The notes: generated from the letters alone by a model not told the origin. A DNA stretch of 64,000 nt from Escherichia coli (GCF_003334355.1 NZ_QOWP01000013.1), one strand, 5' to 3'; shown: positions 1-9,139, counted from the stretch's first letter. Made by a program: numbers and translations.

Positions 1-77
1 TGTTTTTGTCATGTGAGTCACCTCTGACTGAGAGTTTACTCACTTAGCCGCGTGTCCACTATTGCTGGGTAAGATCA
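1..77 (-). mobile_element. IS3 left terminal inverted repeat plus first 4 codons of orfA (insE); element body lies upstream of the window
   Basis: Reverse complement of 1-77 reads TGATCTTACCCAGCAATAGTGGACACGCGGCTAAGTGAGTAAACTCTCAGTCAGAGGTGACTCACATGACAAAAACA, matching the IS3 end and orfA start (ATG ACA AAA ACA = MTKT) as I recall them. All three plus-strand frames hit stops within nt 1-47. Confidence 0.85.
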
Positions 78-695
78 GATAGCCCATCAGCCATAGCGGT
101 TGGGCAGCGTAAAGACGGGGAAATCTACACAGCGGATCTCAAAAGTAAGGCGCTTGCATTCACGATGGCACACGCACTTGAGCTCGGTGATAAAATGATT
201 TCAATCAATCTATTACCTATGACCCTGGTTAACGAACCTGACGCAGTCTCTTTTTTACTTAATGAAATAAAGGCCAATGCTCTGGTGCCTGAACAAATCA
301 TCGTTGAATTTACTGAAAGTGAAGTCATATCTCGGTTTGATGAGTTTGCCGAAGCGATTAAATCGCTAAAGGCTGCTGGTATCAGTGTAGCAATTGATCA
401 TTTTGGCGCAGGTTTTGCTGGTTTGTTACTCCTGTCACGCTTCCAGCCTGACAGAATTAAAATCAGTCAGGAATTGATTACCAATGTTCATAAAAGTGGG
501 CCACGGCAGGCAATTATTCAGGCGATCATAAAATGCTGTACATCACTTGAAATTCAAGTCAGTGCTATGGGCGTGGCAACACCAGAAGAGTGGATGTGGC
601 TTGAATCCGCAGGAATTGAGATGTTTCAGGGAGATCTGTTTGCTAAAGCTAAATTGAATGGTATCCCTTCCATAGCGTGGCCAGAGAAAAAATAA
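78..695 (+). pseudogene. bluF: bluF (ycgF) 3-prime fragment encoding the EAL-domain portion; 5-prime BLUF-domain part separated by the IS3 insertion
   Basis: Open frame from 78 (DSPSAIAVGQRKDGEIYTADLKSKALAFTMAHALELGDK...) to stop at 695; EAL-like C-terminus; synteny immediately upstream of bluR. Preceded directly by the IS3 end; no in-frame continuation upstream. Confidence 0.7.
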
Positions 696-814
696 TTTTC
701 AGCACATTCTTTCACATGATTTCAGTAAATCATCGTGAAAATGAATACGTTACGTTTAAATTTAATCCACATTAAAAATAATGTTTCATCCAATTTAGCT
801 GAAATCTTATTTAT

Positions 815-848
815 ACTTTGTACAATTTTAGCGTATATTGTACAAAGT
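815..848. promoter_or_regulatory. Perfect 12-bp inverted repeat ACTTTGTACAAT-N10-ATTGTACAAAGT upstream of bluR; candidate MerR-type operator
   Basis: Seen directly in sequence about 50-85 bp upstream of the bluR GTG start; the factor that binds it is inferred, not known. Confidence 0.4.
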
Positions 849-899
849 ATTATTGGGTCGTGTACAGGCGACGGAGATTTGTGACCGCAAGGAGGAATT

Positions 900-1631
900 G
901 TGGCTTATTACAGCATTGGTGATGTTGCTGAACGTTGCGGGATTAATCCTGTCACTCTCCGGGCCTGGCAACGCCGCTACGGTTTGTTAAAACCACAGCG
1001 CAGTGAAGGCGGACACCGACTCTTTGATGAAGAAGACATACAACGCATCGAAGAGATCAAGCGTTGGATAAGTAATGGCGTCCCTGTAGGCAAAGTTAAA
1101 GCATTACTGGAAACCACCAGCCAGGATACGGAAGATGACTGGAGCCGCCTGCAAGAAGAGATGATGTCAATTCTTCGCATGGCTAATCCTGCCAAACTAC
1201 GCGCGAGAATTATTTCACTGGGTCGAGAGTACCCAGTAGATCAATTGATTAATCATGTTTACCTTCCTGTTCGCCAGCGTCTCGTGCTTGATCACAACAC
1301 CTCCCGCATTATGAGCAGTATGTTTGACGGCGCATTAATTGAATACGCAGCAACCTCGCTTTTCGAAATGCGCCGTAAGCCCGGTAAAGAAGCCATTCTG
1401 ATGGCGTGGAATGTTGAAGAGAGAGCACGATTGTGGCTGGAAGCATGGCGTTTATCATTGTCAGGATGGCACATTTCTGTTCTTGCTGATCCCATTGAAT
1501 CGCCGCGCCCGGAACTGTTCCCGACGCAAACATTGATTGTCTGGACAGGCATGGCACCAACGAGAAGGCAAAACGAACTTTTACAACACTGGGGTGAGCA
1601 AGGTTATAAAGTCATCTTTCATGCCCCCTAA
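900..1631 (+). CDS. bluR: MerR-family transcriptional repressor BluR (YcgE)
   Basis: 243-aa ORF with GTG start preceded by AAGGAGG; N-terminal MerR HTH ([30 protein letters not shown]); synteny bluF-bluR-ycgX. Confidence 0.85.
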
Positions 1632-1851
1632 TTTCACCTTTATCCCGCCCCTTAGACAGAATGTTATAATCTGAACCCACAACAGCGTTTGTACCGGAGC
1701 TGGTCCGTTGCAAAATGCTCACCGGGAGAATTCAGATATTCCCTCTATCACACTCTGTACATATCACAGCCAAAGGACAGACCAGATTGAAGTGGTAAAA
1801 CCGATCGTGCACACTACGCAGTCTCACAACTAACAAGAGGTTATTATCCTG

Positions 1852-2256
1852 ATGGATCAGGTCGTTGTTTTTCAAAAGATGTTTGAGCAAGTGAGAAAAG
1901 AGCAAAACTTCTCCTGGTTTTATTCAGAATTAAAACATCACCGTATTGCACATTACATTTATTATCTGGCTACGGATAACATCAGAATTATTACTCACGA
2001 TGATACGGTTTTGTTATTAAGAGGAACCAGGAACCTGTTAAAAGTTAGTACGACCAAGAACCCTGCTAAAATAAAAGAGGCCGCATTGCTTCATATTTGC
2101 GGAAAATCTACATTTCGGGAATACTGTTCAACACTGGCAGGCGCGGGCGTTTTCCGGTGGGTTACTGATGTTAATCATAACAAACGCAGTTACTACGCCA
2201 TTGATAATACGCTTTTATATATTGAAGATGTAGAAAATAATAAACCATTAATCTAG
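1852..2256 (+). CDS. ycgX: DUF1398-family protein YcgX
   Basis: 134-aa ORF; length and position between bluR and iraM match the K-12 ycgX. Confidence 0.75.
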   Translation: MDQVVVFQKMFEQVRKEQNFSWFYSELKHHRIAHYIYYLATDNIRIITHDDTVLLLRGTRNLLKVSTTKNPAKIKEAALLHICGKSTFREYCSTLAGAGVFRWVTDVNHNKRSYYAIDNTLLYIEDVENNKPLI

Positions 2257-2465
2257 CTAAAGTTGGATACTTAAGAAATGCTTCATAATTCAGTAAGGCA
2301 TTAGCATAATGGAAATAAAAGTGCAGAGACTATCTCTATGGATGATTAATACTGTCTTTTTATTGTCACCCATAAATAATCACCAGACTAATACTATCAA
2401 CTTGATATTTGAAATGTGATCACTTGACTTTTGATACGTTATTTTATAACGGTTAACATATTTAT

Positions 2466-2512
2466 AAAAACAACGGCCGTGCCACACGTCCGTTTCAATA
2501 CTTAACGCACAT
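2466..2512 (-). terminator. Terminator-like hairpin (ACGGCCGTG..CACGTCCGT) with T-run on the minus strand; imperfect copy of the icd terminator
   Basis: Hairpin plus TGTTTTT on the minus strand; about 80 percent identical over 45 bp to 3333-3380. Confidence 0.45.
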
Positions 2513-2955
2513 GTATTTTGGTTTAGTCATCATCCGGTTATATGTATTTTAGCCAGGAACAGGTTAAATCATTCCTATATAACTCAAAAATTGAAACCTT
2601 ATTCTCATGTCATGCTTATATTCATTATTATCGTTATATAAAAAGGCAACCATAATGTTTAGCAAATTGGCACAAAGTAGCATAAAGGCTATGTTTTAAT
2701 TACAGGATGTTCAGTCATTTGAATGTATAACATTATAGCTAAACAAATCTAAAACGAAGTCAATAATTTATTGCTTTCACAAAATCTCATTTTGTTTAAC
2801 ATCCATTGAGATTCCTTGCTTTAAATTTTATTTTATATAAGCCATCATTTTAATTAATTTATTTTTTTGAGGGGGGGGTAATATACTCATATGCAAAATC
2901 AAGAAATAAACATCCTAATGAACCATATTAAATACCGTGGGATAAGACATAACAA

Positions 2956-3279
2956 ATGAAGTGGATAGTAATTGACACGGTAATTCAACCTACATGTGGT
3001 ATATCTTTTTCAGCCATATGGGGTAATATGAAAATGATCATCTGGTATCAATCTACTATATTTCTCCCTCCTGGCAGTATATTTACACCGGTTAAGTCTG
3101 GTATTATCCTTAAGGATAAAGAATATCCTATTACTATTTATCACATCGCACCATTCAACAAGGATTTATGGAGTTTACTCAAAAGCAGTCAAGAGTGTCC
3201 TCCAGGAGAAAGCAAAATAACAAATAAATGTTTACATAATAGTTGCATTATAAAAATATGCCCATATGGGCTCAAGTAA
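2956..3279 (+). CDS. iraM: Anti-adaptor protein IraM (YcgW), RssB inhibitor that stabilises RpoS
   Basis: 107-aa ORF ([18 protein letters not shown]...) in an AT-rich segment between ycgX and icd; matches my recollection of IraM in length and sequence. Confidence 0.75.
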
Positions 3280-3321
3280 TGGGCTTCATATAAATATGCT
3301 CGATATGCTATTAATAATATC

Positions 3322-3357
3322 CACATAAATAAAACAACGGGCGTGTTATACGCCCGT
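3322..3357 (-). terminator. icd rho-independent terminator
   Basis: Perfect 7-bp stem ACGGGCG/CGCCCGT with 7-nt loop immediately after the icd stop, followed on the minus strand by TGTTTTATTT. Confidence 0.75.
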
Positions 3358-3381
3358 TTCAATATTTAACACATGGAGAGA

Positions 3382-4632
3382 TTACATGTTTTCGATGATC
3401 GCTTCACCAAACTCTGAACATTTCAGCAGCTTAGCGCCTTCCATCAGACGTTCGAAGTCATAAGTTACGGTCTTGGCATTGATTGCGCCTTCCATACCTT
3501 TAACAATCAGGTCAGCCGCTTCAGTCCAACCCATATGGCGCAGCATCATCTCAGCGGAGAGAATAATAGAGCCAGGATTTACTTTGTCCTGACCGGCATA
3601 TTTCGGCGCAGTACCGTGGGTGGCTTCAAACAGGGCGCATTCGTCACCGATGTTTGCACCAGGGGCGATACCGATACCGCCAACCTGCGCTGCCAGGGCG
3701 TCAGAAATGTAGTCACCGTTCAGGTTCATACAGGCGATAACATCATATTCAGCCGGACGCAGCAGGATCTGTTGCAGGAATGCATCAGCAATCACGTCTT
3801 TAATGACGATCTCTTTGCCAGTGTTCGGGTTTTTAACTTTCAGCCACGGGCCACCGTCGATCAGTTCACCGCCAAACTCTTCACGCGCCAGCTGGTAGCC
3901 CCAGTCTTTAAACGCTCCTTCGGTGAACTTCATGATGTTGCCTTTGTGCACCAGAGTCACAGAGTCACGATCGTTAGCAATTGCGTATTCGATCGCTGCA
4001 CGAACCAGACGTTTGGTGCCTTCTTCCGAACACGGCTTAATACCGATACCACAATGTTCCGGGAAGCGAATTTTCTTCACCCCCATCTCTTCACGCAGGA
4101 ATTTAATCACTTTCTCGGCGTCGGCAGAGTCTGCTTTCCATTCGATACCCGCATAAATGTCTTCCGAGTTTTCACGGAAGATAACCATATCGGTCAGTTC
4201 AGGGTGTTTAACCGGGCTTGGAGTGCCCTGATAGTAACGTACCGGACGCAGGCAGATGTAGAGATCCAGTTCCTGGCGCAGGGCAACGTTCAGAGAGCGA
4301 ATACCGCCACCAACCGGAGTGGTCAGCGGACCTTTAATGGCAACGCGATATTCACGAATCAGATCAAGAGTTTCAGCAGGCAGCCAGACGTCCTGACCAT
4401 AAACCTGTGTGGATTTTTCACCGGTGTAAATTTCCATCCAGGAGATTTTACGCTCGCCTTTATAGGCTTTCTCGACTGCAGCGTCGACCACTTTCAGCAT
4501 GGCTGGGGTTACATCTACACCGATTCCATCACCTTCAATGTAAGGGATAATCGGATTTTCAGGAACGTTGAGTTTGCCGTTTTGCAGGGTGATCTTCTTG
4601 CCTTGTGCCGGAACAACTACTTTACTTTCCAT
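3382..4632 (-). CDS. icd: Isocitrate dehydrogenase (NADP), ancestral-type 3-prime end with no e14 prophage
   Basis: 416-aa [41 protein letters not shown]...; C-terminus ...[21 protein letters not shown]. Confidence 0.95.
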
Positions 4633-4803
4633 TCACCTCTCCTTCGAGCGCTACTGGTTTGCTCGTCTGCCACCACGTTGCATATGCGTTTGCGTCCTGC
4701 GATACGGATGCTTTAGAGCAATTTTTTGTTAATGATTTGTAATTGGCTTGTCAATACTACCCTATTGTTTGCCGTCATGAAAGATGCGCGTTATTAGGCT
4801 ATA

Positions 4804-5457
4804 ATGCGGCAATTCATAATCTCTGAAAATACCATGCAAAAAACTTCTTTTAGAAATCACCAGGTTAAGCGATTCAGCTCGCAACGTTCTACCAGGCGTA
4901 AACCTGAAAACCAGCCCACGCGTGTGATCCTGTTCAATAAACCCTACGATGTTCTTCCGCAGTTCACCGATGAAGCCGGACGCAAAACATTAAAAGAATT
5001 CATCCCGGTTCAGGGCGTTTATGCAGCAGGTCGCCTTGACCGCGATAGCGAAGGGTTGCTGGTGCTGACCAATAACGGCGCGTTGCAGGCGCGTTTAACC
5101 CAGCCGGGTAAACGCACCGGAAAAATCTATTATGTGCAGGTGGAAGGTATTCCCACACAAGACGCACTTGAAGCCTTGCGCAATGGCGTAACCTTAAATG
5201 ATGGCCCTACCCTGCCCGCCGGCGCGGAGCTGGTTGACGAACCCGCGTGGTTATGGCCGCGGAATCCATCAATTCGTGAACGCAAAAGTATTCCCACCAG
5301 CTGGCTGAAGATCACCTTATATGAAGGACGTAATCGCCAGGTGCGCCGCATGACCGCCCATGTTGGCTTCCCCACGCTGCGACTGATTCGCTATGCGATG
5401 GGTGATTACTCTTTGGATAATCTTGCCAATGGCGAATGGCGAGAAGTGACAGATTAA
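4804..5457 (+). CDS. rluE: 23S rRNA pseudouridine(2457) synthase RluE
   Basis: 217-aa ORF with RsuA/RluE-family motifs ([19 protein letters not shown]); synteny. Confidence 0.9.
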
Positions 5458-5466
5458 GGATGCAAA

Positions 5467-7088
<1,622 letters not shown>

Positions 7089-7123
7089 TTATTATCTTTA
7101 CTTAAAACAAGGAAGCAGTGAAC

Positions 7124-7765
7124 GTGGCAAAGAATTACTATGACATCACCCTCGCCCTGGCCGGTATTTGTCAGTCGGCACGCCTGGTGCAACAACTCGC
7201 TCACCAGGGGCATTGTGATGCCGATGCGCTACACGTCTCACTCAACAGTATTATTGATATGAACCCCAGCTCGACGCTGGCGGTTTTTGGCGGTAGCGAA
7301 GCCAACCTGCGCGTCGGGCTGGAAACCCTGCTCGGCGTGCTCAATGCCAGCAGTCGCCAGGGCTTAAACGCCGAATTAACCCGCTACACACTCAGCTTGA
7401 TGGTGCTTGAGCGCAAACTCTCCTCAGCGAAAGGCGCGCTCGACACTCTGGGCAACCGGATCAACGGCCTGCAACGCCAGCTCGAACACTTCGATTTACA
7501 GTCCGAAACGCTGATGAGCGCGATGGCTGCTATCTATGTTGATGTGATTAGCCCGCTTGGCCCGCGCATTCAGGTCACCGGTTCCCCTGCTGTACTGCAA
7601 AGCCCACAAGTGCAGGCGAAAGTTCGCGCAACCCTGCTGGCAGGCATTCGCGCCGCCGTGCTCTGGCACCAGGTCGGCGGCGGACGTCTGCAACTGATGT
7701 TTTCTCGTAATCGCCTGACCACTCAGGCAAAACAAATTCTTGCTCATTTAACCCCGGAGTTGTGA
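7124..7765 (+). CDS. hflD: Lysogenization regulator HflD
   Basis: ORF 7118-7765; GTG at 7124 gives the 213-aa product ([14 protein letters not shown]...). Start codon choice is uncertain. Confidence 0.85.

Positions 7766-9139
<1,374 letters not shown>

Follow-up and report, generated by a model that had tools for sequence, protein, structure and literature searches.

The iraM interval beside icd in Escherichia coli as a probable trimmed remnant of an icd-integrated element

The small regulatory gene iraM of Escherichia coli, whose product connects Mg2+/acid sensing by PhoPQ to the stability of RpoS in K-12 (reviewed in PMC11825808), lies directly beside icd, between two similar terminator-like sequences. 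The question raised by this locus is how such a gene came to be enclosed by what look like two versions of its neighbor's terminator. The first-pass annotation of the stretch analyzed here (the window: 64,000 nucleotides of one strand, NZ_QOWP01000013.1) offered two possibilities, a small insertion that duplicated the icd terminator region or recombination at a prophage-integration hotspot. On the basis of the sequence comparisons described below, we consider it probable, at about 0.7, that the interval is the trimmed remnant of an element that had integrated at icd, bounded by duplicates of the attachment site.

The first 7 kb of the window carry, on the + strand and in this order, bluF (partial, 165-695), bluR (900-1631), ycgX (1852-2256) and iraM (2956-3279), followed by icd on the - strand (3382-4632) and then by rluE, nudJ and mnmA. 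The features of the iraM region are the following, with the annotation of ymgL and ymgK taken from the RefSeq record of an identical sequence (L002; for ymgL also via L001):

1852-2256, + strand: ycgX, open reading frame with annotation; DUF1398 protein of the prophage-moron type, outside the repeat-bounded interval
2309-2419, + strand: ymgL, annotated small open reading frame between ycgX and copy 1
2421-2466, no strand assigned: left flank of copy 1, common to the empty site (see below); resembles decayed e14-type integrase arm repeats (TTTTGATAA...TTTTGATAACCGTTAGCA)
2467-2511, no strand assigned: copy 1 (T1), putative displaced, degenerating copy of the icd terminator, with a weak fold
2655-2699, + strand: ymgK, annotated 14-codon open reading frame in the interval; 74% homologous region in the R32-type island
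2891-2925, + strand: relic of a ymgB/ariR-family gene, 5' end only, from alignment with strain XJ5.2
2956-3279, + strand: iraM, RssB anti-adaptor; PmrD-like family PF11183, prophage-moron type
3331-3375, no strand assigned: copy 2 (T2), predicted working rho-independent terminator of icd (- strand) and sole terminator downstream of iraM (+ strand)
3382-3546, - strand: last 165 nt of icd, the stretch carried and replaced by icd-integrating phages

The repeat and the interval it bounds

The direct repeat pairs 2467-2509 with 3331-3373, 43 nt without gaps at 84% identity (36/43) and with a start-to-start spacing of 864; if a 2-nt indel is allowed, it extends through ACATG to 2513 in copy 1 and 3375 in copy 2. 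The repeat reported in the first-pass annotation is thus real, but its second copy, given there as 3333-3380, was started 2 nt too late. A 34-nt degenerate pattern covering both copies has just these two matches in the 64-kb window and none in 100 shuffles.

Copy 2 begins 7 nt past the icd stop codon and has the properties of an intrinsic terminator: six of the 9 bp of its stem are G-C pairs, and on the - strand the stem is followed by a GTTTTATTTA tail, the stem-loop with its tail being located 23 nt after the icd stop codon. Its predicted folding energies are -22.6/-19.8 kcal/mol (z about -4.8, and -4.9 on the icd strand), the iraM strand being nearly as good, and it is predicted to terminate both of the convergent genes, icd and iraM. 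In this window copy 1 is no more stably folded than shuffled sequences (-13.4/-10.5 kcal/mol, z -0.2/-1.2; -9.7/-11.7 kcal/mol in a second calculation made alongside other alleles) and, with its mismatched stem, does not qualify as an intrinsic terminator. Both bases of one stem pair are changed in it, the G-C becoming C.T (read from the opposite strand, A.G), and the pair is thereby broken; the first-pass annotation is therefore wrong in describing the stem changes as compensatory. In most other E. coli lineages copy 1 does have the properties of a terminator, with a perfect stem and -15.3/-16.8 kcal/mol. Its alleles can be arranged by loop and stem from GTTAT (R32 type) through GCTAT (XJ5.2) and GCCAT with a perfect stem (most lineages) to a G.T pair (L101) and finally GCCAC with the C.T mismatch (K-12), a series that reads as stepwise decay away from the copy-2 sequence, with no compensation. 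An Rfam scan of positions 1-8000 at E <= 1 gave no family match, the three sub-threshold hits, all of snoRNA type, being attributable to chance.

The GC content of the interval is low (30.2% for 2512-3330, where icd has 50% and the window as a whole 50.9%), and iraM itself has 34% GC and 31% GC3. The AT-rich segment described there is real, but it is not bounded on the left by the repeat: low GC continues beyond copy 1 (28.6% for 2257-2466, 36.8% for ycgX), and the right boundary alone fits the repeat. Nor is iraM the only content of the interval, as had been stated. The open reading frames in 2512-3330 are iraM and the annotated ymgK, which are accompanied by the ymgB/ariR-family gene relic, with no integrase and no phage structural gene. 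Precomputed hits to PF11183 exist for the IraM homologues that are 94-96% identical and for almost all of the others. No gene for an integrase or for another recombination function is present in the 864-bp interval; a remnant can be without one, but the assignment of the interval as a remnant consequently rests on its comparison with other alleles.

A few further observations concern the interval itself. A T run that passes into eight G (TTTTTTTGAGGGGGGGG) immediately precedes the ymgB-like relic and the iraM leader, at 2862-2878; such a run of G is missing from the aligned position in XJ5.2, and the tract could be prone to slippage. An insertion sequence or transposon, considered as the identity of the interval, is excluded by the absence of terminal inverted repeats, the absence of a transposase and the 43-45 bp length of the repeat.

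Empty sites and larger alleles

In strain CFT073, ycgX-ymgL is followed by a single terminator copy and the icd 3' end, with exactly 864 bp absent; the junction combines the left flank of copy 1 with the right flank of copy 2. The same iraM-less, one-copy junction, which is the empty site expected of an integrated-element remnant, is present in 1037 of 5426 complete E. coli genomes, and its single copy agrees with copy 2 at all diagnostic positions. The first-pass annotation had predicted that iraM-less genomes would keep one copy of the repeat, and the clean junction agrees with that prediction. The small gene ymgL is found in iraM-plus and iraM-less genomes alike.

A second, separate empty-site background is represented by strain 14EC020, which has an IS200C at the junction. 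The insertion point of this IS200C coincides with the outer edge of the single terminator (L003, 2125-2820), and in strain 167 an ISEc20 is located within the interval, upstream of iraM (L006, 5026-6474); these insertion sequences target the same small region.

The K-12-type interval, recognizable by the junction with the ymgB relic, is present in 3884 of the 5426 genomes. Two rarer alleles are larger, the XJ5.2 type (11 genomes), with an intact extra ymgB-like gene, and the R32 type (19 genomes), which extends to 6.3 kb. Most of the remaining genomes are without the whole bluF-iraM block, as in strain 2010C-3347, where a complete lambdoid prophage ends in the order int-terminator-icd. In this EHEC-type strain (L140) the entire bluF-bluR-ycgX-iraM block is absent, and the region between minE and icd contains an autotransporter fragment, ompT, an IS66-family element, stress genes and the prophage, which is DLP12-like.

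The XJ5.2 type has the order copy 1, intact 79-codon ymgB-like gene, iraM, copy 2. The R32 type, as found in R32_14_1F, begins with copy 1, a remnant of the stop codon and last codons of icd, a ymgK-like region, an intact ymgB/ariR-family gene and iraM with its own terminator, and continues with trkG, which in K-12 is a Rac-prophage gene, then with the remains of an IS5, a hypothetical gene and a set of intact e14-type arm repeats, ending in copy 2 and icd. The icd stop and last codons follow copy 1 in register, with 20/33 matches (P about 2e-5), and a weaker colinear trace of icd extends over ~190 nt (gapped extension, p about 0.017). A displaced icd 3' end is not detectable beside copy 1 in the window, where local alignments of the sequence to the right of copy 1 with the icd 3' end were unremarkable (equaled by 373 and 496 of 500 shuffles). 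R32 and K-12 have in common the sequence beyond the icd remnant, which indicates a single origin for the decayed structure.

K-12 keeps the first ~35 nt of the ymgB-like gene (2891-2925), after which a ~430-nt deletion reaches to the iraM leader. Downstream of iraM, homology between K-12 and R32 ends ~13 nt before copy 2, at which point R32 has the iraM terminator and 4.8 kb more. As judged from these alignments, the K-12 interval appears to be the most reduced of the iraM-containing forms. The identity between XJ5.2 and K-12 is 94.5% in the left flank, ~76% in the center and 95% over iraM-icd; because the alleles are such mosaics, descent of one from another is not strictly demonstrated.

Phages at icd and iraM as prophage cargo

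Matches to the repeat pattern occur at a median of two places per E. coli genome, all of them linked to icd, so that the repeat is not a dispersed element of the REP or ERIC kind. The same holds beyond this species: all 23 matches in viral contigs are in icd-linked contexts or in the iraM interval itself, and some 70 species of Enterobacteriaceae, recovered via RluE, have a terminator of the same architecture behind icd. The repeat being a generic dispersed element had been named in the first-pass annotation as a reason to abandon its reading, and the two places in 64 kb, together with this linkage to icd across E. coli genomes, viral contigs and other species, speak against it. Escherichia species have the copy-2 sequence in common, at the same position behind icd, and both copies in the window are versions of the icd terminator, as expected of a direct repeat of an integration target.

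In many of the ~70 species, three tandem TTTTGGGGAA-like or TTTTGATAA-like motifs abut the distal edge of the terminator, beside an integrase gene; these motifs are the arm sites used by integrases of the lambdoid and e14 types. Prophages with int and xis adjoin the terminator and icd (L004/L140, L005, L016), which places the repeat at the target of characterized integrases, and a complete lambdoid prophage ends in int-terminator-icd in both L004 and L140. Phage-borne copies of the icd 3' end with its terminator were found in L004, L005 and L016. Homology between phage and chromosome stops at the outer edge of the terminator, and since the arm sites are located there as well, the terminator evidently travels with the icd 3' end in icd-integrating phages. 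Prophages at icd that extend beyond the 8.5-kb loci compared are present in E. albertii, E. whittamii and two further Escherichia species.

A comparable island is present in Citrobacter gillenii (L022, 2047-8747), where 6.3 kb without an integrase lie between two 220-nt copies, in each of which the last 165 nt of icd are joined to its terminator. Besides genes for a PerC-like protein, a heptosyltransferase and an autotransporter of the AIDA type, its cargo includes a ycgX-like gene that is fused to arm repeats of the lambdoid kind, and from its structure the island appears to be a half-decayed parallel to the iraM interval. In E. coli, autotransporter genes or their remnants are found at the minE end of the minE-icd block.

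The elements e14 and phage 21 reportedly integrate into icd of K-12, in work by Hill et al. in 1989 and by Wang, Whittam and Selander in 1997. They bring in their own replacement for the icd 3' end, leaving the original one (icdC) displaced on the far side; e14 is a 15-kb element with an integrase and an excisionase. The iraM interval has the same icd target, and the crossover of e14 is visible in our comparison: the stretch described here is 100% identical to K-12 strains, and in e14-carrying K-12 the match to the window runs through iraM and stops at 3546, 165 nt inside icd. Unlike e14, the iraM interval measures 864 bp and has neither integrase nor excisionase, and of the duplicate the terminator part alone survives in K-12. 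The window is a K-12-like chromosome without e14, and since iraM is retained in it, the gene lies outside e14, beside it. A passage in PMC4045071 puts iraM "on the e14 prophage", a published location that the e14-free window contradicts and that is corrected here.

Homologues of IraM that are 54-73% identical are encoded in lambdoid prophages, between Q and the lysis/holin genes or beside stx, and a homologue is encoded in 46 sequenced phages, mostly Stx2-converting, although most of the phage records leave the gene unannotated. In some Stx phages (L013-L015) the IraM-like gene comes immediately after stxB, is encoded on the opposite strand and has the nanS-p esterase gene on its other side. 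YcgX homologues are located between the terminase and lysis genes of lambdoid prophages (L133 and L138; ybcV in L140) and inside the icd-bounded island of C. gillenii. In E. albertii and in Escherichia sp. E10V10 the closest relatives of YcgX are found within a prophage and at yedF-fliE, respectively, neither of them beside icd. One prophage (L138) has the arrangement DUF1398(+), lysis genes(-), IraM-like(+), Q(-), which is the order and orientation of ycgX...iraM relative to icd; the orientation is also that of the complete icd-integrated prophage in L140. No terminator-like repeat was found around the gene at the IraM-like prophage loci, where homology with the window is confined to the open reading frames, and no copy-1-type sequence follows the phage ycgX-like genes in L133 or L138.

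On the strength of these homologies, iraM appears to be a prophage cargo gene, or "moron". Known genes of this kind include bor, ybcV in DLP12, trkG in Rac and stx in Stx phages. The IraM- and YcgX-like phage genes resemble lambdoid morons in occupying the slots on either side of the lysis cassette and in being transcribed against the late genes; the window differs from such prophages in that nothing surrounds the gene, the moron, its promoter region and the duplicated terminators being what remains. A paralogue of IraM that is likewise an RssB anti-adaptor, IraL, is regarded as horizontally acquired and is placed on the potB genomic island of uropathogenic CFT073 (PMC4045071). CFT073 is without iraM, as was seen here, and the passages on IraL in that paper contain no description of the boundaries of the iraM interval or of an empty site.

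Origin of the interval and direction of change

If the interval is the remnant of an icd-integrated element, the following course of events would account for it. Temperate elements, of the e14/IntE type or lambdoid, would enter the icd 3' end carrying its last ~165 nt and the terminator, and each integration would result in two terminator copies: one brought in by the element and joined to icd, and the resident one, displaced to the other side of the element. Successive deletions would then have cut the element to 864 bp, sparing iraM and its upstream region. Copy 2 would be the incoming terminator, now serving icd and iraM, and copy 1 the displaced older terminator, no longer behind icd and decaying in the K-12 lineage. 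We infer both the descent of the K-12 interval from a full-size element and the order in which the deletions occurred. The gene order of the R32 type, with iraM to the left of trkG, is unlike a single colinear lambdoid map, so that more than one element or a rearrangement is needed to explain it.

The process envisaged is already known from e14 and phage 21 at icd and from islands at the 3' ends of tRNA genes, and no novel mechanism or type of element is involved. As in the tRNA islands, the element carries the 3' end of its target, generating direct repeats, and the empty site has one copy. The differences are that the target here is a protein-coding gene with its terminator and that the repeat surviving in K-12 is the non-coding terminator part only.

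With regard to the iraM-less genomes, we lean toward the view that they lost the interval by recombination between its two copies, rather than never having had it. According to the opposite scenario, which we consider unlikely although it deserves to be taken seriously, the B2-type arrangement ycgX-ymgL-terminator-icd is ancestral and an element added the iraM layer later, in the ancestor of the other lineages, with no loss. A single-layer state is predicted by repeated integration, the empty site retains the arm-like left flank of copy 1, and B2 is frequently placed near the base of E. coli. The haplotypes themselves point the other way. In a tree of 615 nt of the left flank, which like the nudJ-mnmA tree is a single-locus tree from a recombining mosaic region, the empty-site sequences are 2-4% from the K-12 type, whereas the iraM-plus sequences of XJ5.2 and R32 lie at distances of 7% and 23%. 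The nudJ-mnmA tree places R32_14_1F among the cryptic-clade representatives and not in the main cluster of E. coli, a position that suggests an island older than E. coli proper, and the 14EC020 junction provides a separate background for the empty site. Taken together with the single origin of the decayed structure, the two trees favor an old island that was later lost in B2-like genomes.

It is improbable that the interval arose when an iraM segment of ~0.86 kb was inserted at the icd terminator, duplicating ~45 bp of target, with the iraM-less genomes representing the ancestral, never-occupied site. Such an event would account for the one-copy empty site with its clean flanks, and agreement of the single copy with copy 2 at the diagnostic positions would be expected if copy 1 diverged after the duplication. 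However, the larger alleles have both of the K-12 junction regions along with extra genes, and the ymgB-like gene is truncated in K-12, which makes the K-12 form a probable reduced derivative. In addition, no inverted repeats pair the ends of the interval and no transposase open reading frame or recombinase is present; in R32-type genomes the duplicate reaches beyond the stop codon of icd; and iraM-less genomes have a left flank that is nested among iraM-plus haplotypes. To our knowledge, a target duplication of 45 bp far exceeds what insertion sequences make. Of the two origins considered in the first-pass annotation, then, the small insertion is probably not correct, the larger alleles indicating a big icd-integrating element later trimmed to 864 bp, and a footprint at the prophage hotspot of icd is borne out by the empty site, the icd-linked repeat and the same larger alleles.

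That copy 1 is merely the terminator of ycgX-ymgL, resembling that of icd by convergence or through a dispersed repeat family, is largely refuted and highly improbable, since, even though its hairpin is intact in most E. coli lineages and could terminate either strand, the similarity includes the flanks besides the stem, the pattern has two copies in 64 kb and none in shuffles, every copy in E. coli, viral contigs and other species adjoins icd or an icd 3' end carried by a phage, nothing of the kind follows the phage ycgX-like genes, and Rfam gives no match.

Returning to integration at icd as the origin of the interval, the left flank of copy 1 raises the possibility of still earlier events. 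In an anchored global alignment, positions 2421-2466 score 20 against e14-type arm repeats, compared to a mean of 4.1 (sd 2.1, maximum 14) for 2898 AT-rich windows, and none of 2000 shuffles reaches 20; an unanchored nhmmer search of the same flank with an e14-type arm-repeat profile did not report it. The likeness had been spotted by eye before the test, which is in this sense post hoc, and the identification of the flank as decayed arm repeats is suggestive. If the resemblance is real, copy 1 would itself once have been phage-borne and ycgX-ymgL would be an earlier layer, to which ycgX may belong. A profile of the terminator and icd 3' end from the ~70 species, searched against the window, L006, L128 and L129, found the known copies only and no older ones further to the left.

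A more general, tentative and in our view rather doubtful extension is that the icd flank grows by accretion, with terminator copies comparable to growth rings and each integration pushing the older remains outward. The older ring would comprise ycgX-ymgL, the decayed e14-type arm repeats and copy 1, the younger one ymgK, the ymgB relic, iraM and copy 2, and the newest would be e14 in K-12. Should this be true, the small regulators between minE and icd (bluF/bluR, ycgZ-ymgA-ariR and iraM) could stem from decayed icd-targeting elements, and copy 1 may persist in most lineages as an insulating terminator before the PhoP-controlled promoter of iraM.

The comparisons fix the boundaries of the iraM interval and, with the probability given above, its origin. 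About one fifth of complete E. coli genomes are without iraM, and rarer, fuller versions of the interval exist; because the gene is cleanly absent from some strains and part of fuller versions in others, the link it provides between PhoPQ and RpoS should vary between strains. The presence of one or two terminator copies and the ymgB relic can serve as markers for typing the locus, which would be a compact example of how repeated integration at one gene end can leave stranded terminators and domesticated cargo.

Two minor observations concern icd and its other flank. A 28-nt inverted repeat (82% complementary) pairs 3068-3095, inside iraM, with 4417-4444, inside icd, and is probably due to chance. 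Between icd and rluE, where the window has a spacer of 171 bp (4633-4803), XJ5.2 (L128, 8671-9455) and R32_14_1F (L129, 17665-18449) carry two additional genes, one of the STM2901 family and one of the DUF1493 family.
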